Source of the DNA: Candidatus Dojkabacteria bacterium
GTDB lineage: Bacteria; Patescibacteriota; Dojkabacteria; JAHIVN01
Direction: 5' to 3'
Assembly (NCBI GenBank): GCA_016932045.1
Contig: JAFGDO010000005.1
Location: forward strand, 36,739-100,738
DNA: 64,000 bases
Part shown: in pieces, positions 593 through 63,072 of the stretch
How positions within the stretch are numbered: the stretch's first letter is position 1
Layout of the letters: each line of letters opens with the position of its first letter
Translations under genes and position numbers: made by a program
Notes under the pieces: generated by a model
What the model was told of the DNA's origin: nothing
The model's database searches: none
Seen by the model: only the letters and a program-made list of their open reading frames with translations

Positions 593-1039
593 TCATCTAC
601 TATCTAATATTATCGTCACCGGTCCGTCATTATTTATCTCAACAAGCATCTTTGCTGCAAATTTTCCACTCTTTACCTTATCACTACTATAAACTTCTTT
701 CAACTTTGAAATGAATTCTTCATATAATGCTTCCGCCTGACCAGTCTCCTCAGCTTCGCCAAAAAAAGGCCTTCTTCCCTTTGAACAGTCTGCAAAAAGT
801 GTAAATTGCGAAACAACTAAGATCTCCCCGTCAACCTCAGCTAAGTCCTTATCGAACTTGTCAGACTCATTCTCAAATAATCTAAGAGCAACTACCTTCT
901 TGGTTAAAATGTCAATATCTTCTTGAGTATCTCCTGCAGCTACTCCTAGCATTAGCACATACCCAATACCAATATCCGCAATTCTTTTTCCACTCACACT
1001 AACCGATGCTGATTTTACTCTTTGTAATACAATTCTCAT
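593..1039 (-). CDS. dtd: D-aminoacyl-tRNA deacylase
   Basis: 148 aa with an MRIVLQRV start, an SQFTL motif and an NDGPVT C-terminal motif, all typical of Dtd. It sits in the gatC-gatA-dtd-pth gene string. Confidence 0.85.
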   Translation of the reverse strand: MRIVLQRVKSASVSVSGKRIADIGIGYVLMLGVAAGDTQEDIDILTKKVVALRLFENESDKFDKDLAEVDGEILVVSQFTLFADCSKGRRPFFGEAEETGQAEALYEEFISKLKEVYSSDKVKSGKFAAKMLVEINNDGPVTIILDSR

Positions 1040-9311: not shown

Positions 9312-12300
9312 CTACCCCCCTAGCGGAGATTTAGGTGTAGATTCTCTTTTACTCGGAATGGATTTAAAAGGAGAAGTGTACATCCTTCCTTTAGATTCAG
9401 TAGTCAATGCTTCCCCAGTTGGATCAACAAACAAATCCTGACTTACTCCCTTCGCCCTTGTCACACTCATCTGTAAAAGATTCTTTTTAATTCTGCCTTT
9501 AAACTCATTCTTTTGAGCTTCTGACGGGAATATATAGCCTTGTCTACCAACAGATAGATCATATTCTCCCGGTTCTGCAATAAATCCAAACCTACCTTTT
9601 TTGTCGCTCACTTGTAAATCAACGGGTTCATGTGTTGCAAGGTCAAATAGTCGAACAAATGAGGAGGCTACAGGTTCCTTGGATTTAGAATCTAGTACGA
9701 TCCCCCAAGATCTAACTCTTAAAAACTTTGCAATAATATCACTTATAGGAATTAGCAGAGAAAACAACACAAAACCTAGATTTATAACACCTAGATTAAA
9801 AACCAGATTAAACACTGAAACACCAAAACCCATATAGAATAATATTTTAACGATACCTCTTGCACTTCTATTAAAGAACTTTTTAATTGTATGTATGGAT
9901 CTAGAAAAATCTCCCAGCTTCTTTGATTCAAGCTCAAAATCAAGCGTAATCCTTTGTACATGTTTGCCTTTTATCCCTAGCTTCTTGGTTACCTTCTTAT
10001 AGTCACTATGGACAACCTCAATGCTATAGTCACCCGGATCTAGAACTATGCCATATCTTCCAGAAAGATCACTAACACTTTGTGTAGCTAAAGATCCATT
10101 ACTTGTATATGCTCTAACAACAGCAAACGCTACTGGTTTTTTGCTAAATGAATCCAAAGTTACCCCCCAAGCTTTTCTTCTTACTACACCTAGAAGAATC
10201 CCAATCGTATTGAAAAATACTCCTGCATTAAAAATATTAGTACCGAGTGTAAGAAGAAGATAAAACAAACCTATCATCCCAGCAGTCACAAACGATCCAC
10301 CTGTAAAGCCCCGTAATATTATTTCATTTTCTTCAAAAAACTCCTTTACAATATCAAGAATTGATGGTGTTGAGCTACTATCCGTTGGGTCACTTTCTCC
10401 TTCGTCTAACTTACCATTGCCATTCATATCTTCTTCTCCATCTTTGTACCCATCATCATCACTATCAGGATCATTCGGATCGGTTTTTCTGCCCTCACCG
10501 TAAGCACCAAGTATCTCAGTATAGTCACTCAAGCCATCAGAGTCTGAGTCAGAACTTAACGGGTCTGTATGATAGATATTAACCTCATCACCATCGCTTA
10601 TACCATCTCCATCACTATCACTACTATAAGGATCTGTACCCAATTCTATCTCAGTTCTGTTATCTAATCCGTCCCCGTCCTCATCTCCTTCGCCAGTTAA
10701 AGGAATACGACCATCCTCTCCCGGATCATTCGGATTATTCGGGTCAGTGCCGTATTTCTTCACCTCATCCCCATCGGAAAGTCCGTCATCATCACTATCA
10801 CTGTCATTCGGGTCTGTTCCGTGTTCCTTCACTTCTTCTCCGTCATTTATCCCATCATCATCTGTATCACTATCACATGGATCTGTCCCGTTCTCATATT
10901 CCTCCTTGTTTGTCAGTCCGTCACTATCCGGATCACCTCCACTATCGGGGACTGTTGATGATACACAATCATATCTGTCCTCCCACTCATCCGGTATCCC
11001 ATCCCCATCTGTATCTTCTTTCCCATCTACAAGCGGTGTAGCCGGTGCATATGCACAATTCACTGCATAGTCACATATCCCTCCTCCATCACAACTACCC
11101 TGACAACTATAATCTCCTCCCACGTTATACCTATTGTCTCCACTCCCTGAACTTCCTCTCCATCCGCTACCACATAAACTCCCCCCACTACATGTTCCTT
11201 GTGAACATCCTGTTCCTACTCCACAGTTAACCTTCTCCTGTCCTACTATGAAACTACAATTACTTATATAATCACACCTATACTGATCTCTTATCCTTTC
11301 ACACAGTCCATTACACCTCCAGCTCCCACTCCCGCACAACGCTGTCCCTTCCTTCCCGCAATCATCGGTTAATGTGTATCCTACACTTGCATACACATTC
11401 TCACTTCCTGCTCCTGTGTTATCTGTTCTACAGCTTCCTGCACCTCCACACGCCCGGTAATACTTCTTCCCTGTGCATTTTCCACTCTCGCATGTCTCTA
11501 TATATTCACAATTATTACTGCTGCTTGGTGCCTCATATGGCATTGTTCCTCCTCCTATCTGATTCTTCCCTACATTCCCATCAGGTACATCTTTCCCCTC
11601 TTCTTCGTAATGGTCACTTGTATCGCTATCACATACTCCCGCTCCTTCACACTCTGCATACCTTTGTGTATATGTACATCCTCCTAGAGTAGAGTAGTAA
11701 TTAATTATTCCTTCACAACTTGTCCTTTCCATAGCATCTGCTTCTCCGCAGTCTCCTTTCAATACCTTTCCTGCAGTTGCAAATACGTCCTCTGTTGCTG
11801 CTCCTGTGTTGTCTGTTCTACAGCTTCCTCCTCCGCTGCAGGCTCGGTAGTATTTCGTCGCACTGCATCCTCCTGCTCCACAAGTCTCTATATACTGACA
11901 ATTATTACTGCTGCTTGGTACTTCATATGGCACACTCCCACCTCCTGTCTGACTCTTCGCTACATTTCCATCAGGCACATTCCCCACTTCCTCTGTATAA
12001 TAGTCACTCGCATCACTATCACAAGTCCCGGCTCCATCACACTCCGCATACCTTTGCGCATATGTACAACTACCTTGACTTGAGTAGTAGTTTGTTCCTC
12101 CGCTACAATTTGTTCCTACTGTCCCATCTGTCTCACTACAATCATTTGTTAATATCTTTCCTGCTCCTGCTGTCACCCCTTCACTTGCTGCTCCTGTGTT
12201 ATCTGTTCTGCAGCTACCTGTCCCTCCGCATGCCCGGTAATATTTTACCGCTCCGCAATCCCCGCTATCACAATCTTCTACATACTGACAGTTATTACTG

Positions 12301-15300
12301 CTGCTTGGTACCTCATATGGCGTACTACTACCTCCACTTTGACCCTTTGCTACATTTCCATTTGGTACATTTAAGCCCACTTCTTCATAATAGTCACTTG
12401 CATCACTATCACATGTTCCTGCTCCATCACACTCCGCATACCTTTGCGTATAAGTACAACTCCCTGCTGCTGAGTAATAATTCACTCCTGCACATGATAA
12501 TGCCGGACTCGATGCATCCACCTCACTTCCTCCACTACATACTTTCATCTGACTCACATTTGCTGTAGCGTCATTTGTGTCACATGCTCCAGCTCCGTCA
12601 CAGTTACCATCCGGTCCTCTTCTTACACATGAACTGTCACAGCTTGTCCACCCTGCCGTGCACTCATTATGCGGATCCTGATTATCTGCTATTAAGTCAC
12701 ATGCTAAATCTCCATCACTACATGAGTAGCATGTCCCACATGCCCCTTTTTCTCCTCCTCCATATATCCCACATGCTCCTGACCCATTGCATGTTCCTGT
12801 TCCACATTCTGTTGCTCCACATTCATTATCTATATCCTGTCCGTTCGGCACATTTGTACACGTTCCTACCGATCCTGTTACATCACAGGCTCTGCATGTA
12901 CTTGTACATGTGCTATTACAACATACTCCATCTACACAGTTCCCTGACGAACACTCACTCCCTGCACTACATCCTTGTCCATTTACCAACTTACATGTCC
13001 CTGTACTTTCACATTCATAATTTGCTGGACAACTGTTCTGCCCTGAGGTGTAACATACTTCTCCTATTGTATCGTAATTCCCAGCCGCTCCTCCTTCAGG
13101 ACATGCCTTCTTGCATCCTGCTGATCCGCATACTCCTCCTCCCGCCTGCCCATTCTCTATGTTTTGTGCTGCACATTCCTGTACCTGTGTTCTGCATGCA
13201 CTTGCTCCATCACACATCCCTGGCGTGGTTGCTGACTTTAGTCTGCATGATAGGGGATTGCCTGCTCCCCATCCGTATATGTATCCTGTACAGTTTCTTT
13301 CTACACACTCGTCCTCCGGATCTGTCCCTGCCGCATGTGCGGTACATATCCCTTCACTTCCGCCTATGTTACATGCTTCGCATGTAACGGCACATGTCGT
13401 ATTACAACAGTACCCGTCTATACAATTTCCTGATGTACAGTCGCTTCCTAGCTGAATAATAACCTTTCCGCTTTCTTCTGGATCTCCGGCGACACCACGG
13501 TCAGGATCCGTACCTACTCCCTGTTGAGTAGTACCACTTGCTCCAGTTGGGTGCACATAACCTGATCCAGCACCACCACCCCCTCCAGCAGCAATGCTAG
13601 TGCCACCACCACCTCCTCCACCATAGTAACCACCACCACCACCTCCTCCTCCACAAAATGTACCAGTCCCTCCTGCACCGCCAACCCCTATAGCACCTGG
13701 TAATCCATTTCCTCCACCAGCGCCACCTACTGACTGAGTGCCACCATCTCCACCAAGTGTTCCTCCTTCAGAATTCTGCCCGTCTCCCCCTGTTGTCCCT
13801 CCTCCAATTCCACCATCGCCTCCTTTTCTATCGTAGGCAGCAGTTCCATCTTCAGACCCGCCGCCGCCACCACCACCCGCAATAATTAAAGAAACTCCAC
13901 TCCTACTAATTTCAGACCTCCCACCCCCACCTCCACCATCACCACCAGCAGCACTGGGATCACCGCCTTCTCCTCCGCCTCCATACCCTCCACCTCCACC
14001 AGCATTCCCTGTTTTACCAGCTCCACCAACAACAATAACTAATGTATCACCAGGTGATACCGGAATAATTCCTTGTGAGAACCCAGCCTCTTCACCATAT
14101 CCAGGATTATGATCATAATATGAAAAACCAGTTCCTCCGCCTGCTCCCCACATCTTTACTTTAACACTTGTAACTCCAGATGGAATTACATAGTTCTGTC
14201 CAGCACCTGTATAATTAAAAGTTAACGTATCACAAACCATCCCATTTTGCATTGTGCATACACTCGGTTCACCTCCACAATCCCATCCTGTCTCGTTAGT
14301 ACAAGTAGAAGAACACCCATCTCCATTTAGAGTCCCACCATCATCACACTCCTCAGTTCCTACCACAATCCCGTCCCCGCAGATCTCGGTACAACTACTA
14401 GGTTCACTGCTACAGTTCCATCCACTTTCAATTGTACATACTGAAGAACATCCGTCTCCACCTCCTGTCCCTCCGTCATCACATTCTTCGTCAATCTGGA
14501 TAACACCATCTCCACAATTAAAAGTTGAGGTGCATGTACCTTCGCTTCCCGGAACATCACATGCTTCATTCACTCCGTTGCATAATGTATCACAGCAGTA
14601 TCCGTCAACACAGTAATCAGATGTGCATCTTGATTCAATAATTATTACTCTTCCATTTTGTTCTGGACTCCCAGCTGTCCCTCTATATGGATCAGTTCCA
14701 ACTCCTCTTATGATGGTACCATTTAATGTATAACTTGTATTTAAATAACTTGAACCGCCACCTCCTCCTGCTCCATAGTGATCGTGCCCACCCCCACCCC
14801 CTCCGTAATATCCGCCTCCACCGCCCCCTCCCGGACCCCATCCGGTAGAAGCTGCTCCAATTCCTCCAGTTAGATATCCTCCATTTCCTCCTCCCGTTGC
14901 TCCTCCAGTCCCACCAGCAGACTGAGTACCCCCGGTTCCACCATACGCAATATCAATAGCATCACAATTATCTTCACCATCTTCTCCAGTTGAACCTCCT
15001 CCATCTCCTCCATCACCTGCACATGAGTTCGGAGAGGACCCTCCTCCTCCTCCTGCTCCTATTATCAGTGGAGTTCCATCACTCTTCTCGAGTGCCGATC
15101 TTCCTCCTCCTCCTCCTGCTATCATTCCTTGACTTCCTGTACCTCCATTACCACCACCTCCCCATCCTCCAGTAGGCTTTGTACCAGCTCCCCCAGCTAT
15201 TATAGTAATCGTCTCTCCGGGCGTTACATTGACATCTGCATCAGAGAATCCGCCTCTGCCACCAGTACACGTTCCAGCAAGACATGTTCCTTTATGTCCA

Positions 15301-17249
15301 CCTGCTCCCCACAACTTTACATGTACCCGATTAACACCTGCAGGTACTGTATAATATTGTTCTGAACCTGTATATTCATATACATCATAGCTGCATGACA
15401 TACCATTTGGTAATGTACATATTGTAGGTTCTCCACTACAATCCCATCCACCTTCCAGTGTACAAGTAGATGAACATCCATCTCCATTACTCATATTCCC
15501 ATCATCACAGGCTTCAGTTCCCTGAACTAATCCATCTCCACAAGCTATGACAGAATAGACTAAACTTACACTGTCAAGCGTTGGAGTGCCTGAACCATCT
15601 GAAATCAGGATAATTCTGTAATAAAAGTTAGCACTAGTCCATCCAAGAGAAGAAATATCTATTGAATTACTACCAGAAGAAAGTGAATTAGTACCATCAA
15701 CAACACCACTTGAGTTATACCACGTAGAAGTATCCTGACTAAATTGTACAGTTGCAGAAGTACCAGCAGGTAGAGTAGTAAGATTATATTCAAAAGAATC
15801 AATTGAGGTTATATCTGTCTCCCCTGCAAGCAAGTTTACAGATTGAATAATTGGAGTTTTAGTATAGTAAACACCGGATGCACCATGCCCCTTGCCTCCA
15901 CCCCAATCACATCCACCCGTCATAAAAGCTCCGCTGTAATCCTTCGTACCAGAACCTCCATAAGCATTATAAGTAATAAATAATGTTCCACCTGCACCTC
16001 CTCCACCATCACCTGGACAGTCTTTTGTCCCAGTACAACCAGTACCTCCAGCTCCACTTTCTCCGGAAACATTTAATGCTCCATTATTTGTCAACTGGGG
16101 AGTAACAATATAGATAATCCCTCCTCCATCTCCACCATATCCACCTTGGTATATATCATCTCCTCCTCCTCCTCCTCCTCCTGAGCCAAGAAAAAGTTTA
16201 TAAAGACTCGCGTATGAACTTCCTCCTGTTCCACCAACGCGCACCGTTCCTCCAACTATACTTGTAGTTGACTCCCCTGTAGTCCCAGTTCCATTATATC
16301 CACCACCTCCACCTCCTGCTCCACCATGACAACCAACAGAAGATCCCCCCCCAGAAGGATCCCCCTCGCCAGCACCTCCTCCACCATCATTATTTGCAGT
16401 CGTCTGACTCGAGGAACCACCAAATGGCCCCAACCCTGTATATCCTAAGTTATCTCTAGGACCACGTGCTCCCCCAGGGAACCCCAACCCCGATACACTT
16501 ATCTCACCACCCGACTGAATATTCACATTTCCCGTTGCACGAAATACTAGTACTCCTCCTCGCCCTGTGCCATCATCATACAAAGGCGTTGTCATAACAC
16601 CCCCACTTTGAACTGTAACATTCGTATACTGAGGAACACGAATTACTTGGCATCTATTTGTTCCACTACCGGAATATGCATATGTCGTGCCTCCAGCCCA
16701 TAAAATGGTATTACCGGCAACAATAACATTCTTTTTAAACTCAGATTCTCCCGCATTAGTACCTTTCATCTGAATTATAAGAATTTCATCACCAGTTGAA
16801 AATCCAGTCGCATCACCTACTGTCATTGATGTTGTACCCACGGGATAATCAGAAGTTATATGTGTATAAAGATTTGTTTCCGGATAGGCTGTTGATATAG
16901 TTGTAGCGCCATCCGTACCATCGCCTTCATCCATATAGGTAATATCATTTATCCGTGCTTGCCCAGCAGCCAAAACATAGTTCCAAGAATTAGAGGCATC
17001 AATTTTTGAAGCGTCGGCATAATCATCTGAAACAGAGGCTACTGCAGCTTCCGTGACCTCGATCTCTTCGGTCACAGATCTAGTCATAACTATAGTCAAT
17101 CCAATGGCCCCAAGAATTAGAAAGGAGGCAAAAAAAAGTAACGGCACTCTTCTTTCCTTATCATTTGCCTTATTTAGCATATTTTTGAGCGTTTTCCTGA
17201 GAGAATTACTCATTACATGTGCGTCTAAATCCTGAGAATAATTATCCAT
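9312..17249 (-). CDS. Giant (2645 aa) membrane-anchored repetitive surface protein. Its architecture is: N-terminal TM anchor; Gly-rich beta-solenoid-like regions; Myxococcus-type Cys-rich repeats (CGDG..GEECDDGN..GDGCS..C); CxxGxCC Cys-knots; three 130-aa Cys-rich tandem repeats; thrombospondin-type-3 Asp-rich Ca-binding repeats; and a C-terminal pair of TM segments each followed by a CarboxypepD_reg/transthyretin-like beta-sandwich.
   Basis: A single uninterrupted 7.9 kb ORF. The domain calls come from motifs read in the translation: [27 protein letters not shown] (Myxococcus-type repeat), VKLWGAGG / VKMWGAGGG Gly-rich modules, DSDGDG..DGEE..GTDP (TSP3-type repeats) and WGVTLDS...[16 protein letters not shown] (CarboxypepD_reg-like). 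The plus-strand ORFs in this interval are His/Leu/Ser-rich antisense artefacts. Confidence 0.8.
10380..11030. repeat. Thrombospondin type-3-like Asp-rich calcium-binding repeats (coding, within the giant gene)
   Basis: Eight or more repeats of D.D.DG..D..E..GTDP..(S)DSD.DG in the translation. Confidence 0.65.
11400..12600. repeat. Three near-identical tandem repeats of about 390 nt (about 130 aa each, Cys-rich) inside the giant gene
   Basis: The string tgctcctgtgtt(a/g)tctgttct(a/g)cagct recurs at 11411, 11799 and 12188 (period about 388-389 nt). The flanking sequence is highly similar over hundreds of nt, and the protein repeats are [11 protein letters not shown]...SCRTDNTGA units. Confidence 0.8.
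13460..15420. repeat. Two divergent copies (about 780 nt each) of a Gly-rich module (Y.TG..Q.Y.VP.GV..V.VK.WGAGGG ... GVGTDP.RG.AG.PE..G.VII) within the giant gene
   Basis: Protein-level duplication: one copy starts [16 protein letters not shown] and the other starts [16 protein letters not shown], with the same motif order in each. Poly-Gly tracts of this kind are encoded by GGN runs, which appear antisense as 'ccacc' strings. Confidence 0.65.
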
Positions 17250-60193: not shown

Positions 60194-62083
60194 ATGATTG
60201 AATCTGCTCCGTCTTGGTCAAAAAGAAATAAACGTATACTTTTATTTTGCTGTTCTTGTATTCTCATCCTTTTAGTGTGCATTGTAGTTGTAACAACCGG
60301 GTATTGGGTCTACTATACATATTTCAAATCCAGAGGAGGGCCACTTATATACGAACTTACCCTTGAAGGATATAACTTAGAAGAATCAGATTCCATCGAC
60401 TTTAACGGCGGCGTAATCAAAGTTAATGATACATCAAGTCCTCTTTATGGTGCTAAAGTCGAAATAGCCGAAGGATCGCTAACTGAGAGTGAATCTGTTG
60501 AAATCGGATATAGTGAAATACAAATTGTAAATATTCCTGAAGATATGGAAATATTAGGAGAAATGGTTGTGCTAGAAAAAACAAAAAAGGACGAACTCTT
60601 TAACTATCCTGTTGCAGTAACTCTTCCTTTCGATAAATCAAGAGTTAAAAATGGTGAATTAGTAGGAGTATATGAATATGATGAAGACACTGGATACTTG
60701 CAATCAACAACGCTTGCAGATTATGATGAAGAGAATGGAACAATAACCATCCTAATCACCCACTTTTCTAAACTTGTACGGATAAAAGTATCGATTGAGG
60801 GTAAACTTAAAAAAGCAATAAGCAATGGTTACGATACTGGTTTTAGAGTAAATGAAGATGGTTTTTTCATAAGCAACTGGGGTAGTTTTGAGACATATGG
60901 TAATTGTTTGGGAATGTCTTCAATGGCAAAGTTTCAATATGTCTACAAAAAAAGACCGCAAAAGACATTCTATGAAAGATATAGAGTAGGCCTTAAGGAT
61001 GAGGAGTTTGATGACGAAGCGGCTCAAGAATTGGTAGGTAGAATTGATGTTAAGCTTGAACCTAGATTTCTAAGAATGCAAGAAGATATGTTTCGTTTTG
61101 GGAAAGGTTATTACTCTCTCAATAAATATTATCCAATGTATGTTCTGCAAAATATGGTAGTTACTGGACAGCCTGAACTATTGTATCTTAGAAAAGCAAA
61201 TTATGTTACTGATCCAAACGGATATGTGAGAGCTGAATTTGTACTTGGAAATAATCATGCAGTATTAGCCTATAAATATGAAGATGGGTACATGCATATA
61301 TATGACCCCAATTTCCCCTATAGGCGAGGAGCGGATGAGAATAGAAATGATAGAAAGATTAAATTTTCCTATGATCGTGGATTCGATACATATTATTCAG
61401 GATTAACTTCAGAAGGATCAAAGTATACATTTGATGTATTCATTCCTTTTGCCAGCAACTTTGTGATCGGCAACAGAGAAATGCGTGATCTATTAACACT
61501 ATCCTTAGAAGGATTTTCGGATGGTTATTATCCTGACATTACAATCGACTATCCAAAACCTGAAAATATAGTTATCTCGGATTCTGTAACTATACGAGGT
61601 AATATTTTTAGTGAAAAGTATAAAGCAGCAAGCAATGATTATAAATATATCCACGCATATTATAAAAGTAGTACAAGCGACAAAGATCATAGGGTGCAAA
61701 AGATTTCAAGTGACGGGAGTTTTTCCATAAACGTTCCATTATTAAGTGGTGAGAATGTAATTCATCTTGTAGCAGGAGGACAGGCTGAAAACACAGGATG
61801 GGCTGCATACAAAAAAGTTATAGTAAATCTTGAAAGTTTTGCTAAAGAAGGAAGTCCTCCTCCTCAATACGATCCAATTGATACTTGTGAAGAATTGTGG
61901 GAGAGAGGAAAAGTAGAATATGAAGTTGATTTTTATGCAGAAGATCCAAAGGGAGGATGGGTACATTGCTATGATTATAATGAAGATTTGGATATATTTT
62001 GCAAGGACGGTCATCTTGATTCAATTGAATGGAATGAGATTGAGGAAGATTATGCTAAGTGTATAAAGTATTTAAATCAATAA
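60194..62083 (+). CDS. Large membrane-anchored hypothetical protein with a possible papain-like Cys/His core
   Basis: 629 aa with an N-terminal TM helix (LLFCCSCILILLVCIVVV). GNCLGMSSMAKFQY (candidate nucleophile Cys) and NNHAVLAYKYEDGYMHIYDPN (candidate His/Asp) lie in papain/transglutaminase-like order. This is speculative. Confidence 0.5.
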   Translation: MIESAPSWSKRNKRILLFCCSCILILLVCIVVVTTGYWVYYTYFKSRGGPLIYELTLEGYNLEESDSIDFNGGVIKVNDTSSPLYGAKVEIAEGSLTESESVEIGYSEIQIVNIPEDMEILGEMVVLEKTKKDELFNYPVAVTLPFDKSRVKNGELVGVYEYDEDTGYLQSTTLADYDEENGTITILITHFSKLVRIKVSIEGKLKKAISNGYDTGFRVNEDGFFISNWGSFETYGNCLGMSSMAKFQYVYKKRPQKTFYERYRVGLKDEEFDDEAAQELVGRIDVKLEPRFLRMQEDMFRFGKGYYSLNKYYPMYVLQNMVVTGQPELLYLRKANYVTDPNGYVRAEFVLGNNHAVLAYKYEDGYMHIYDPNFPYRRGADENRNDRKIKFSYDRGFDTYYSGLTSEGSKYTFDVFIPFASNFVIGNREMRDLLTLSLEGFSDGYYPDITIDYPKPENIVISDSVTIRGNIFSEKYKAASNDYKYIHAYYKSSTSDKDHRVQKISSDGSFSINVPLLSGENVIHLVAGGQAENTGWAAYKKVIVNLESFAKEGSPPPQYDPIDTCEELWERGKVEYEVDFYAEDPKGGWVHCYDYNEDLDIFCKDGHLDSIEWNEIEEDYAKCIKYLNQ

Positions 62084-62559
62084 TTTAGTGGATAATTTCC
62101 AAAATCTATAAGTTCATCAAGTATATTCATCAACTCTAGTTCTACTACTTAAGTATCCAATCTTTTATGCAAATTGTAAAGACTATTAATGATACTTCTT
62201 AGTTCCTTGTGCTAGTCTTATCCTTTACGTTAAATTCTAGATCCCTTTTGAATGGTAAATAATGGATGAGAAAACTGATAGTTAAACGGATTTTCAAGGG
62301 CTGGCCTGCCTTCCACGTATTACGCGGCTTGTCAGCAAACAGGGATTCCTCAAGTCAATCTAGAAAATTCAAACGCAGTGCAGATTTTTTGTAGAGTGAC
62401 TTAGTCCCAATGGACTTGCTAAATCAGGAGAACTAATACCCTTATTCGGGGGCTTGCCTGCCTGTCGTCAGACAGGGACTCCCTCCTCCATTACATTACA
62501 GAGGACTAATTCGACTAACAAGTTTTACTTCACTTCGTTTGTAAAACTTGAGTCTTATT

Positions 62560-62672
62560 GAGCGAACCAAGATTGGCGGCTTCCCTGTCCGCCTCGGGCG
62601 GAAAAGGCCTATGTCCTACCCGCCTGCAACGCTATGCATAGCATTACAGGCAGACCATTAGACGACCCCTTT
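62560..62672 (-). pseudogene. Degenerate tRNA-Gln-like sequence carrying a 35-nt palindromic insertion in the D-loop
   Basis: The minus-strand reading shares GGGUCGUCUAAUGG, UAGGACA.AGGCCUUU and CUUGGUUCG blocks with the adjacent tRNA-Gln. It is interrupted by UCUGCCUGUAAUGCUAUGCAUAGCGUUGCAGGCGGG, which contains the perfect palindrome GCUAUGCAUAGC. It lacks a complementary acceptor stem, a T-stem partner and a usable anticodon stem. Confidence 0.35.
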
Positions 62673-62805
62673 TAAAATATGCTTTTCCAAAACCAGTCTT
62701 TAACTATTTTTCTCTTAAAATCGCCAACTCTTTTGAGATACAAGCTTCACATAATGATTGTAAAACATAAGTGTAACAGAATCTCATATTCTCGTTTGAA
62801 GGCAA

Positions 62806-62876
62806 TTGCCGGGCTTGGATTCGAACCAAGATCGAAGGCTTCAAAGGCCTTTGTCCTACCATTAGACGACCCGGCA
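62806..62876 (-). tRNA. tRNA-Gln (anticodon UUG)
   Basis: Minus-strand reading: UGCCGGG-UC-GUCU-AAUGGUA-GGAC-A-AAGGC-CUUUGAA-GCCUU-CGAU-CUUGG-UUCGAAU-CCAAG-CCCGGCA-A. The acceptor stem is a perfect 7 bp, the D-stem 4 bp, the anticodon stem 5 bp with a CU-UUG-AA loop, the T-stem 5 bp with a canonical UUCGAAU loop, and the discriminator is A. CCA is not encoded. Confidence 0.85.
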
Positions 62877-63072
62877 TTTACGAAGCATAGCTCGCATTGC
62901 ATTATACTAAAATAAGTGTGACTAAGACAATCTGAAAGAGCCCCTTTTCAGCATTTTTAGAAAAGTTAGTAAAACCCCGACAACTACCCTATAGTAGATT
63001 TTTCTTTTCTTTTTTGATATAATGCCTTTGATTAAATTCTACAAGTTTATACTAATATTATAAGACAAAAAA

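Follow-up and report, generated by a model that had tools for sequence, protein, structure and literature searches.

The tRNA-Gln locus and its surroundings

The window, by which we mean the whole 64,000-nucleotide stretch of Candidatus Dojkabacteria (CPR) DNA that was analysed, contains a single tRNA gene according to both ARAGORN and Rfam (RF00005, 67.6 bits). This gene, an intact tRNA-Gln(UUG), is located on the minus strand at positions 62806-62876. A promoter-like site, TTGTCT-18-TATAAT, lies 25 nt upstream of the gene on the same strand (62901-62930). The consensus scan from which this site is predicted found no promoter-like or terminator-like site between tRNA-Gln and the partial tRNA copy that follows it, and degenerate repeats of the promoter-like box (ACACTTAT...TACAAT/TACAAA) occur at 62778-62757 and 62555-62540. 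Of the two flanking proteins, the left one has best relatives that are only 32% identical and are encoded in unrelated contexts, with synteny not kept, and no relatives were found for the right one; close relatives of the host are likewise absent from the data examined. The NCBI locus tags run from JW766_02030 to JW766_02045, implying that two annotated features lie between the flanking genes. The tRNA gene explains one of them, and an exact look-up of the small ORFs in the window for the extra tag returned no match.

The region downstream of the tRNA gene is rich in GC for an AT-rich genome, as had been recognized in an earlier, sequence-only reading of this DNA. GC content reaches 0.43-0.44 in windows of 400 nt and up to 0.67 in windows of 60 nt, compared with 0.369 overall. 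Positions 62290-62680 are identical in an independent Logan assembly contig, indicating that the region is not the product of one assembler.

A partial tRNA-Gln copy interrupted by palindromic inserts

Starting 133 nt downstream of the intact gene and on the same strand is a second, incomplete copy of it (hereafter copy 2) that corresponds to tRNA positions 5-55 and is identical at 47 of 51 of them. The chained alignment of this copy to the tRNA scores 82, compared with 39 ± 4 (maximum 54) for shuffled sequence. Copy 2 is divided into three blocks, all on the minus strand. Block 1 (62654-62668) covers tRNA positions 5-19, that is, the acceptor 5' strand and the D-arm, and is identical throughout (15/15). 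Block 2 (62603-62617) covers the D-stem 3' strand and the 5' side of the anticodon stem and loop (17/18, including the GGT at 62618-62620). Block 3 (62563-62583) covers the 3' side of the anticodon, the variable region, the T-stem 5' strand and TTCG (18/21), and it is here that the copy ends. The T-loop 3' half, the T-stem 3' strand and the acceptor 3' strand are not in place, leaving the copy without its 3' third. The earlier reading had reported both a tRNA-Gln-like copy beside tRNA-Gln and the lack of a matching acceptor stem, and on both points it was correct. Direct inspection shows that, of the four base changes in copy 2, three disrupt the two outer anticodon-stem pairs with no compensation. 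The tRNA-like blocks are nevertheless 92% identical to their counterparts, compared with ~70% for the flanking spacers, a difference that could reflect either gene conversion or selection on the blocks.

The blocks are separated by two GC-rich hairpins. Insert 1 (62618-62653, minus strand) is a 36-nt hairpin in the D-loop, consisting of outer arms CTGCCTG/CAGGCGG around the palindrome AATGCTATGCATAGCGTT, and its boundary is ambiguous by a 3-nt GGT repeat. This insert had been described previously as a perfect palindrome of 35 nt. Its presence is clear, but in addition to being one nucleotide longer it pairs imperfectly, forming a 16-bp hairpin with 88% complementarity in which only the 12-nt palindrome GCTATGCATAGC at the tip is perfect; helix 30-38/43-51 is predicted with P = 0.97. 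Insert 2 (62584-62602, minus strand) is the 19-nt sequence TCCGCCCGAGGCGGACAGG, which splits the anticodon loop exactly between CTTT and GAAG. The palindrome TCCGCC-TCGG-GCGGA, listed in the earlier reading, lies inside this second insert, which that reading had left undescribed. Altogether the region contains at least five palindromic inserts, and target-site ambiguity at the inserts in the window does not exceed 3 nt (GGT or AAG).

The DNA on either side of copy 2 is informative as to how the arrangement arose. Spacer S1 (62673-62805, minus strand) extends from tRNA-Gln to copy 2, and part of it is repeated after copy 2, with the stretch at 62774-62756 reappearing at 62555-62537 (15/19 identical). 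A longer spacer alignment (U2 against U3) gives z = 4.3. Because spacer S2 (62505-62562, minus strand) is homologous to the start of S1, the 3' boundary of copy 2 is a deletion junction and not an insertion, and because the sequence after copy 2 resembles the spacer after the intact tRNA, the arrangement indicates tandem duplication followed by decay. S2 also contains a perfect 10-bp AU-rich hairpin (62519-62528/62541-62550).

Possible downstream remnants and a second insert locus

Beyond S2 on the same strand are a further hairpin, CCTCTGTAATGTAATGGAGG (62485-62504), whose 5' half resembles insert 1 (12/15), and two related units. Unit A (62445-62483) consists of GGGAGTC, a 20-nt module and CAAGCCCCCGAA. 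The module, CCTGTCTG-ACGA-CAGGCAGG (62457-62476), is predicted to form a hairpin with P = 0.99 and includes the palindrome CCTGTC-GTCA-GACAGG, noted earlier and located at 62461-62476. When the module is taken out, unit A reads GTCCAAGCCC and resembles a tRNA 3' end, matching the T-stem 3' strand followed by the acceptor 3' strand, which we treat as weak evidence. Unit B (62293-62350), a diverged duplicate of unit A with repeat segments that are 78% and 84% identical, consists of GGAATC, a degenerate module (62305-62343) and CCAGCCCTTGAA. Nested within its module is a 15-nt hairpin, CCGCGTAATACGTGG (62313-62327), with an AAG repeat on its flanks. Neither unit resembles the tRNA 3' end at a statistically significant level (z = 0.7-1.9); the likeness is based on a 9-mer and on a call by ARAGORN, which at a relaxed threshold reports tRNA-Gln when copy 2 is joined in silico to unit A.

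A second insert locus is found near the opposite end of the window, at 526-558 on the plus strand, in the intergenic gap 3' of dtd (593-1039, minus strand). Here TCCGCCCGAGGCG is followed directly by CCTGTCTGCCGACAGGCAGA. The former, at 526-538, repeats the first 13 nt of insert 2 exactly (13/13), and the latter, at 539-558, is a copy of the module that matches 62458-62476 at 18 of 19 positions.

The 20-nt module across bacterial phyla

The module in the window differs by one loop base from a form that is present in many phyla, CCTGTCTGCCGACAGGCAGG. A scan of genome contigs returned at least 120 matches to the module pattern, compared with ~17 expected by chance. These are spread over many phyla, which among the matches listed include Bacteroidota, CPR, Nitrospirota, Planctomycetota and Cyanobacteria as well as others. 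The exact 20-mer is also found on viral contigs (23 stretches), and neither PLSDB plasmids nor GenBank phages carry it. Of the 124 distinct instances listed, 121 have C as the free loop base and 118 have G at position 20. Their flanks are random apart from weak preferences for A at -3, A at -1 and C at +1 (A-N-A^C). Approximately 85% of 160 instances listed are intergenic, and orientation bias is not strong. No match to the 36-nt, 19-nt or 15-nt inserts of the window was found in 1.1 Mb of retrieved loci or in viral contigs.

The module is strongly enriched within partial tRNA-gene duplicates. Its flanks match a neighbouring tRNA gene in 15 of 30 instances, compared with 3 of 287 control positions, and the inferred insertion points cluster after tRNA nucleotides 22-24 and 56-57. 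At one locus (L183), two exact 20-nt inserts interrupt a tRNA-Leu fragment that otherwise matches the intact gene beside it at 63 of 64 positions, and at another (L216) an exact 20-nt insert lies within the D-loop. In both cases an uninterrupted copy permits comparison, and no target-site duplication is seen. Within 2.5 kb of 143 module loci the only protein partner to recur is GIY-YIG. Small ORFs of this type adjoin the module in tRNA fragments at seven loci, at a median distance of 27 nt, and loci from Flavobacteriia combine tRNA-Leu fragments containing the module with neighbouring GIY-YIG ORFs.

Other accounts of the module were considered and rejected. An adapter or assembly artefact is incompatible with its occurrence in cultured isolates, in long-read chromosomes and in many independent projects, each time with unique flanks. 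General targeting of hairpin loops is not seen either, given that a predicted loop is present at 27% of sites and 30% of controls. Residence in coding genes, with the module bypassed or spliced, has as its one clear case an IS110-family transposase gene (L174). The remaining apparent coding-gene cases are spurious ORFs or 5' leaders.

We found no published description of the cross-phylum 20-mer. The occurrence of an identical 20-mer with unrelated flanks in many phyla and on viral contigs is not readily accounted for by descent, all the more so as it is concentrated in tRNA fragments. Tentatively, CCTGTCTGCCGACAGGCAGG, together with related 19-20-nt hairpins on CCTGCCTG/CAGGCAGG arms, may represent undescribed ultra-small elements, common to many phyla and viruses, that are copied precisely without target-site duplication and prefer tRNA-gene-like DNA near the D-loop 3' edge or the T-loop, and that are for this reason visible only in redundant tRNA fragments.

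Comparison with known palindromic elements

The inserts resemble REP/BIME elements, short (20-40 nt) imperfect palindromes that are mostly intergenic, occur in both orientations, are sometimes clustered or nested and give stable RNA hairpins. The inserts described here are likewise short, repeated and extragenic, being 19-36 nt in length and present at two loci in 64 kb, with the module largely intergenic in the wider sample. REP/BIME elements are mobilised by RAYT Y1 transposases; no RAYT gene is present among the window ORFs scanned, and none recurs within 2.5 kb of the 143 module loci. In addition, REPs are usually species-specific, whereas the module 20-mer is common to several phyla, and to our knowledge REPs have not been described as strongly associated with fragments of tRNA genes. 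Finally, REP elements carry a GTAG or CGTC head (PMC3733652), and neither tetranucleotide is found at the end of CCTGTCTGCCGACAGGCAGG.

Rickettsia palindromic elements, Neisseria Correia elements and other MITEs resemble the inserts in being non-autonomous palindromic insertions in AT-rich reduced genomes, within RNA and protein genes. However, these elements measure 100-150 nt, end in inverted repeats and duplicate their target sites, whereas the module and inserts span 19-36 nt, and the combination of terminal inverted repeats with a target-site duplication was not found at the module, for which the insertions are of exactly 20 nt and duplicate nothing. The GC clusters and double-hairpin elements of fungal mitochondria are also GC-rich palindromes of tens of nucleotides that are embedded in AT-rich DNA, nest in one another and generate GC spikes, but unlike the module they are organellar and lineage-restricted. 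Yeast GC clusters duplicate a short target, and we know of no link between fungal GC clusters and tRNA fragments.

Alternative explanations for the region

Rfam was searched with the whole window at gathering cut-offs and with 901 nt and 421 nt at E<=10. Beyond the intact tRNA, the searches at E<=10 returned only chance-level matches to eukaryotic lncRNA and snoRNA models, and ARAGORN, run with introns of 0-400 nt, at thresholds of 80-90% and in tmRNA mode, reported nothing new. The intact tRNA-Gln is thus the only gene called by these programs; the earlier reading had not matched tmRNA, RNase P or SRP consensus motifs either. Copy 2 itself does not qualify as a functional tRNA, as it lacks the 3' half of the T-loop and the acceptor 3' strand and has two disrupted anticodon-stem pairs. 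No homologue emerged when metagenomes were scanned for a D-arm interrupted by 20-50 nt. The scan did find truncated tRNA fragments beside full tRNAs, three near-identical contigs with a chance-like match and, on CPR-like contigs, arrays of 5' and 3' fragments around a tRNA of the same type. The bare D-arm 18-mer, with many matches on viral contigs, is too common to serve as an anchor.

An RNA gene that Rfam does not represent is suggested by the predicted fold of the region. The native minus strand folds far better than the plus strand (z = -5.8 and -2.2, respectively), with helices at P > 0.9, and a structured noncoding RNA with a tRNA-like domain was among the explanations first proposed for the locus. 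Such an RNA would be lineage-specific, ~380 nt long and co-transcribed with tRNA-Gln, an exapted tRNA-Gln duplicate supplying the tRNA-like 5' domain that hairpins then expanded. Its role might be that of a decoy, scaffold or processing signal or, less ambitiously, of a hairpin cluster that terminates or insulates convergent units. Consistent with this are GC enrichment in an AT-rich genome, as is typical of RNA genes, the shared orientation with the tRNA, a promoter-like site only upstream of the tRNA with no terminator-like site between, better conservation of the tRNA-like blocks than of the spacers, and a module orientation that gives a transcript with a G-U-containing 8-bp stem. However, when the five inserts are deleted in silico the fold signal drops to z = -1.4, and 17 of 200 shuffled sequences fold as well, indicating that the apparent structure is produced by the inserts. 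Because the inserts share CCTGYCTG/CAGRCAGG arms, arms belonging to different copies can pair with one another, generating both a very stable, closed-looking fold and the GC excess. The predicted long-range helices H2 and H5 are pairings of precisely this kind. In favour of an RNA, the 3' part alone still folds better than shuffled sequence (z = -3.2), although three of the inserts lie within it. Furthermore, the inserts recur elsewhere in unrelated contexts, the cloverleaf is degraded with no compensation, there are no Rfam family matches, and no similarly split D-arm emerged from the metagenome scan. We consider a functional RNA unlikely.

Alternatively, the partial copies could be scars of a lost mobile cassette or integrative element at tRNA-Gln, with the hairpins belonging to the element or arriving after it. 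A partial tRNA copy beside an intact gene is a feature shared with the tRNA sites of islands, prophages and homing cassettes, and elsewhere the module does occur in tRNA fragments beside small GIY-YIG ORFs and CPR-like contigs do carry fragment arrays around a tRNA of the same type. At the present locus, however, there is no GIY-YIG, integrase or transposase ORF or remnant within 62084-63072 or among the small ORFs of the window, which is without an integrase or nuclease gene, and no other mobile-element ORF is nearby. The copy also has the wrong part of the tRNA for an attachment-site scar, since it comprises positions 5-55, the 5' two-thirds, and lies downstream of the intact gene, whereas classical integration involves the 3' end. 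Moreover, the spacer is repeated together with the tRNA, as tandem duplication predicts. A cassette scar is accordingly also an improbable origin for the copies.

An intron-containing or permuted tRNA had been put forward as well, in which a group I intron or several small hairpin introns would be spliced to give a second working tRNA-Gln. Group I introns are common in the tRNA genes of Patescibacteria (PMC13011429), the phylum of the present host, where the interrupted genes are invisible to standard tools and, like copy 2, broken in the anticodon loop near position 35/36. Additionally, the inserts of the locus are located in D-, anticodon- and T-loop regions, and their removal, followed by joining to unit A or B, yields a tRNA-Gln call by ARAGORN at the 80% threshold. 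But the Patescibacteria introns are ribozymes of 200-300 nt (PMC13011429), which hairpins of 19-36 nt cannot be; there is no contiguous 3' exon in place, no RF00028 signal and no match to Intron_gpI at E<=10, and once the inserts are removed the remaining sequence shows no significant structure. The native sequence is empty in ARAGORN intron mode (0-400 nt) and at relaxed thresholds, and the repaired tRNA fails at default settings, having three of five anticodon-stem pairs, four to five acceptor pairs and G instead of A58, with the stem breaks uncompensated. Deletion of the module restored a tRNA in only 1 of 159 instances listed, at the very edge of the gene, and at the present locus an intact tRNA-Gln(UUG) adjoins the copy. 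A spliced tRNA is therefore very improbable.

A highly diverged RNase P, tmRNA, SRP or 6S RNA missed by the Rfam models would suit the length of ~380 nt and the predicted pairing of 5' and 3' ends, and CPR RNase P RNAs may fall below Rfam thresholds (PMC8172020), but we give this explanation almost no weight, as cmscan found no match at gathering cut-offs or at E<=10 (421-nt search), ARAGORN -m was negative for tmRNA at default and 80% settings, inspection revealed neither a P4-type GAGGAAAGUCC/ACAGAA...GGCUUA pair in the right topology nor a T-arm preceding the terminal helix's 3' strand, and the terminal helices consist of palindromic-insert arms. When the sequence was threaded by hand onto RNase P, tmRNA and group I layouts, the topology did not fit.

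A probable decayed tandem duplication colonised by palindromes

The segment is probably non-functional debris, composed of tandem tRNA-Gln duplicates that decayed and were colonised by REP-like palindromes, and not an RNA gene. According to this reconstruction, the tRNA-Gln(UUG) gene and its downstream spacer were duplicated in tandem on the minus strand, and the best-kept copy (62668-62563) then lost ~45 nt, comprising the tRNA 3' third and the start of the spacer. Units A and B, resembling the tRNA 3' end, would be weaker remnants farther downstream. Short GC-rich palindromic inserts probably accumulated later in this dispensable DNA, namely the 36-nt insert of the D-loop, the 19-nt insert of the anticodon loop, the 20-nt module of unit A, the degenerate module of unit B with its nested 15-nt hairpin, and another 20-nt hairpin. 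Decay of a tRNA paralogue after invasion by a miniature palindromic element was one of the possibilities originally raised. The analysis supports it and extends it: there are at least five inserts, one of them has a second copy in the window and belongs to a cross-phylum family, and copy 2 is part of a decayed tandem duplication of tRNA and spacer.

The inserts were presumably mobilised in trans, as REP or MITE elements are, and would be retained only at sites where they do no harm. Neither the surroundings of the module loci nor the window ORFs scanned yielded a mobilising enzyme, and mobility of the inserts is therefore inferred from their distribution only. The region itself probably has no function of its own, except perhaps in blocking read-through toward the convergent gene at 60194-62083.

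For the study of CPR genomes, the analysis removes a false candidate for a novel noncoding RNA from this window and exposes a general trap, in that nested, related palindromic inserts in AT-rich genomes produce strong fold z-scores and GC spikes that mimic RNA genes. The window would itself be a Dojkabacteria (CPR) case of a module family that is over-represented in redundant tRNA fragments beside an intact copy. The cross-phylum 20-mer points to templated or trans-mobilised insertion or to a very widely exchanged element, seemingly undescribed. If confirmed, it would be a new and extremely small member of bacterial mobile DNA, and the 20-mer would serve to mark selfish cassettes that target tRNA genes, such as the GIY-YIG ORFs found beside tRNA-Leu.

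A split copy of tRNA-Gln and its probable origin

ARAGORN and Rfam detect one tRNA in the whole 64 kb, a tRNA-Gln(UUG) on the minus strand at 62806-62876. A second sequence (copy 2) lies 133 nt downstream of it on that strand, and within it three blocks repeat the tRNA: 62668-62654 (15/15 identical), 62620-62603 (17/18) and 62583-62563 (18/21). Chained together, the blocks align with tRNA positions 5-55 at a score of 82, compared with 39 +/- 4 for shuffles, and the likeness ends after the TTCG of the T-loop. Copy 2 is interrupted by two minus-strand inserts. The one in the D-loop is a hairpin of 36 nt (62653-62618, tip GCTATGCATAGC); the other, 19 nt in the anticodon loop (62602-62584, TCCGCCCGAGGCGGACAGG), sits exactly between CTTT and GAAG. 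Given the three-block alignment and the insert mapping, the sequence-only reading was correct in describing a tRNA-Gln-like copy split by a palindromic insert, except that it gave the insert as 35 nt and missed the second one. Three of the four substitutions in copy 2 fall in the two outer anticodon-stem pairs, both of which are broken. An assembly artefact had been raised as a concern, but an independent Logan contig carries the stretch unchanged, and it is hence not an assembler-specific product. The Logan assembly (SRR13394437) does break inside tRNA-Gln, where one contig ends at ~62859 and the next starts at ~62840 (62840-62859; loci L001 and L284), as is to be expected wherever a sample contains the tRNA sequence in more than one context.

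A dot plot reveals that the sequence after copy 2 (62555-62537, AGACTCAAGTTTTACAAAC) repeats the spacer after the intact tRNA (62774-62756, ACACTTATGTTTTACAATC). Both spacer repeats resemble a promoter-like box upstream of tRNA-Gln (62923-62908), and over a longer stretch the two spacers align significantly (z = 4.3). The simplest history would be a tandem duplication of tRNA-Gln plus spacer, after which a deletion of ~45 nt may have taken away the 3' end of copy 2. Further along the minus strand are unit A (62483-62445) and unit B (62350-62293), each composed of a short flank, a 20-nt GC-rich hairpin (the module) and a second flank, which is CAAGCCCCCGAA or CCAGCCCTTGAA; the two units are 78-84% alike. 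Without its module, unit A reads GTCCAAGCCC, resembling the T-stem 3' strand and the start of the acceptor 3' strand of the tRNA, and insert-stripped copy 2 joined to either unit is called as tRNA-Gln(UUG) by ARAGORN at the 80% threshold and not at default. Because the alignments themselves are not significant, this likeness is only suggestive of units A and B being tRNA 3'-end remnants.

The fold signal resides in the inserts

The predicted minus-strand fold reaches -144 kcal/mol (z = -5.8, versus -2.2 for the plus strand), with well-defined helices. Two of the predicted long-range helices involve the inserts: H2 joins the 5' arm of the D-loop insert to the 3' half of the degenerate unit B module, whose 5' half is paired with the anticodon-loop insert in H5. 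When the five hairpin inserts are removed in silico, the remaining 257 nt fold no better than 17 of 200 shuffles (z = -1.4). Given this drop, and given that H2 and H5 join inserts, the large structured RNA is only apparent, a by-product of clustered related palindromes. The earlier suggestion of a structured ncRNA with a tRNA-like domain is thus not sustained, and it is unlikely that the region acts as a lineage-specific functional RNA or as a terminator or insulator.

A 20-nt hairpin shared across phyla

Scanning the window for GC-rich hairpins located a second insert locus on the plus strand at 526-558, just 3' of dtd (593-1039, minus), with the next minus-strand gene starting near 485. The locus consists of TCCGCCCGAGGCG (13/13) with CCTGTCTGCCGACAGGCAGA immediately after it (18/19 against the copy at 62458-62476). 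It lies within a 65%-GC spike, and the surrounding 121-nt stretch has no significant structure (z = -0.14). Genome contigs contain at least 120 matches to the pattern CCTGTCTGNCGACAGGCAG, against ~17 expected by chance. Hosts among the matches listed are Flavobacteriia isolates, Saprospiraceae, Chitinophagales, Bacteroidales, Saccharibacteria, Falkowbacteria, Nitrospirota, Planctomycetota, Desulfobacterota, Bacillota and Actinomycetota MAGs and a cyanobacterial isolate, part of these phylum assignments depending on MAG binning. In the 124 distinct instances listed, C fills the unspecified loop position in 121 and G the twentieth position in 118; flanks are essentially random at every position, with A weakly preferred at -3 and -1 and C at +1, and there is no pairing between the two sides. 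Likeness of the matched loci to the window stops by ~24-28 nt. About 85% of the instances listed are intergenic, with little orientation bias, and the one clear coding target among them is a transposase gene (L174, ~5391), which we take to be IS110-family from recognisable sequence motifs and in which deleting the module in silico restores a 444-aa ORF.

The exact 20-mer occurs on 23 viral contig stretches, at up to four copies per kb, whereas 7.3 Gb of plasmids and 2.3 Gb of GenBank phages contain no copy. A sister hairpin, CCTGCCTGCGGTAGGCAGG, is exact on seven viral contig stretches (L277-L283); near 6430 of L173, one of two tandem tRNA-Leu fragments carries it and the other lacks it, so that a single genome is polymorphic for its presence. 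Rfam has no family for the 20-mer, and exact sequence strings and keywords retrieved no published description from open-access text.

Module-bearing tRNA fragments elsewhere

In L183, from a Winogradskyella MAG, a 3' fragment lies after an intact tRNA-Leu(CAA) and is 63/64 identical to it once two exact 20-nt hairpin inserts are set aside; these sit at the D-loop/D-stem edge and the T-stem/T-loop edge. Similarly, a tRNA-Leu 5' fragment in L216 equals its intact neighbour over 23 nt save for an exact 20-mer in the D-loop. Comparing interrupted with intact copies reveals no target-site duplication at either locus. Among listed loci holding a tRNA gene, module-deleted flanks match the local tRNA gene in 15 of 30 instances, versus 3 of 287 control positions. 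The tRNA genes so matched are tRNA-Leu, Val, Arg, Thr, Ile and Met, and the inferred insertion points cluster after tRNA nt 22-24 and nt 56-57. Deleting the module restores a tRNA call just once among the instances listed, at the extreme 5' edge of the gene, and the module is therefore seen only in redundant fragments. A preference for predicted hairpin loops in general was tested and not upheld. In five metagenome contigs (L126, L127, L128, L129 and L133), a full tRNA likewise has truncated tRNA 5' fragments upstream, at a distance of 20-45 nt; they comprise the acceptor 5' strand and D-arm (~20-25 nt), the D-arm being the same as in the window tRNA-Gln, L127 and L133 have additional 3'-half fragments downstream, and none of the tRNA fragments in the five contigs carries a hairpin insert.

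The sole recurrent protein family near the module, among the loci listed, is a small GIY-YIG nuclease (7 loci, median 27 nt, adjoining tRNA fragments). The arrangement of tRNA-Leu 5' fragment, module and GIY-YIG gene, found in four genera, has probably been spread as a single cassette. Cassettes that combine a tRNA 5' fragment with the 20-nt hairpin and a small GIY-YIG ORF (L183 4641-5211; also L173, L186, L226, L214 and L147) lie upstream of intact tRNA-Leu, tRNA-Arg or tRNA-Thr, some in tandem (five 116-nt units in L214), and look like selfish nuclease cassettes targeting tRNA genes, with the fragment as leader. The window region could likewise be the scar of a lost tRNA-targeting cassette instead of a plain tandem duplication; however, no integrase, nuclease or protein-coding remnant was found in 62084-63072, which makes this unlikely.

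That interval lies in chromosomal DNA of a Candidatus Dojkabacteria bacterium (CPR/Patescibacteria), from a poorly sampled lineage (window GC 36.9%). The left flanking ORF (60194-62083; NCBI protein JW766_02030, on a 120-kb contig) has its closest relative at 32% identity in another gene context, and the right one (start 63073; JW766_02045) has zero relatives among 5.8 billion clusters. In a distant Dojkabacteria relative, a heliorhodopsin gene (L002 7963-8730) lies near a homologue of the 629-aa protein. The flanking tags imply two annotated GenBank features within 62084-63072; tRNA-Gln accounts for one and, as none of the eight small ORFs is in the protein collection, the second may be an RNA or pseudogene call. 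Other window genes are ordinary housekeeping ones (UvrA, class II aminoacyl-tRNA synthetase, amidase, SSB, YbeY, Dtd). A 2645-aa ORF (9312-17249, minus), with bacterial TSP3 repeats, DUF4215 and an ALK/LTK-type glycine-rich domain, is far GC-richer than the rest of the window, with many 60-nt windows of at least 58% GC at 11298-16521.

Known RNA classes

No known ncRNA covers the region: cmscan with Rfam 15 at gathering cut-offs finds only tRNA-Gln, and at E<=10 the 901-nt and 421-nt stretches return chance-level matches only (eukaryotic lncRNA/snoRNA models). Group I introns occur in Patescibacteria tRNAs (PMC13011429), and an intron-containing or permuted tRNA had been proposed here. ARAGORN allowing introns of up to 400 nt, at 80-90% thresholds and in tmRNA mode, makes no further call, and the layout is unfit for a group I intron tRNA, with no 3' exon and inserts far too small for ribozymes; an intron-containing tRNA is very improbable. 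Diverged RNase P RNAs are a pitfall in CPR genomes (PMC8172020), but the layout is unfit, with no P4-type motif pair and no T-arm before the terminal helix, and alongside the chance-level Rfam matches a diverged housekeeping RNA is very improbable.

A recurrent pattern and probable decay

The remaining proposal, a decayed tRNA paralogue with a palindromic element, is supported by the partial copy and the repeated hairpin inserts, and we consider it likely that the region is decaying, non-functional DNA. The 20-mer may be mobilised in trans as a REP-like palindrome, its inserts surviving, we infer, only in dispensable DNA. Unlike REP elements, which are defined by a GTAG/CGTC head and linked to RAYT, the module has neither such a head nor a RAYT gene in sight, and its range is far wider than is usual for REPs. 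The window region is a Dojkabacteria case of a recurrent pattern, in which redundant tRNA fragments beside an intact tRNA gather short palindromic inserts.
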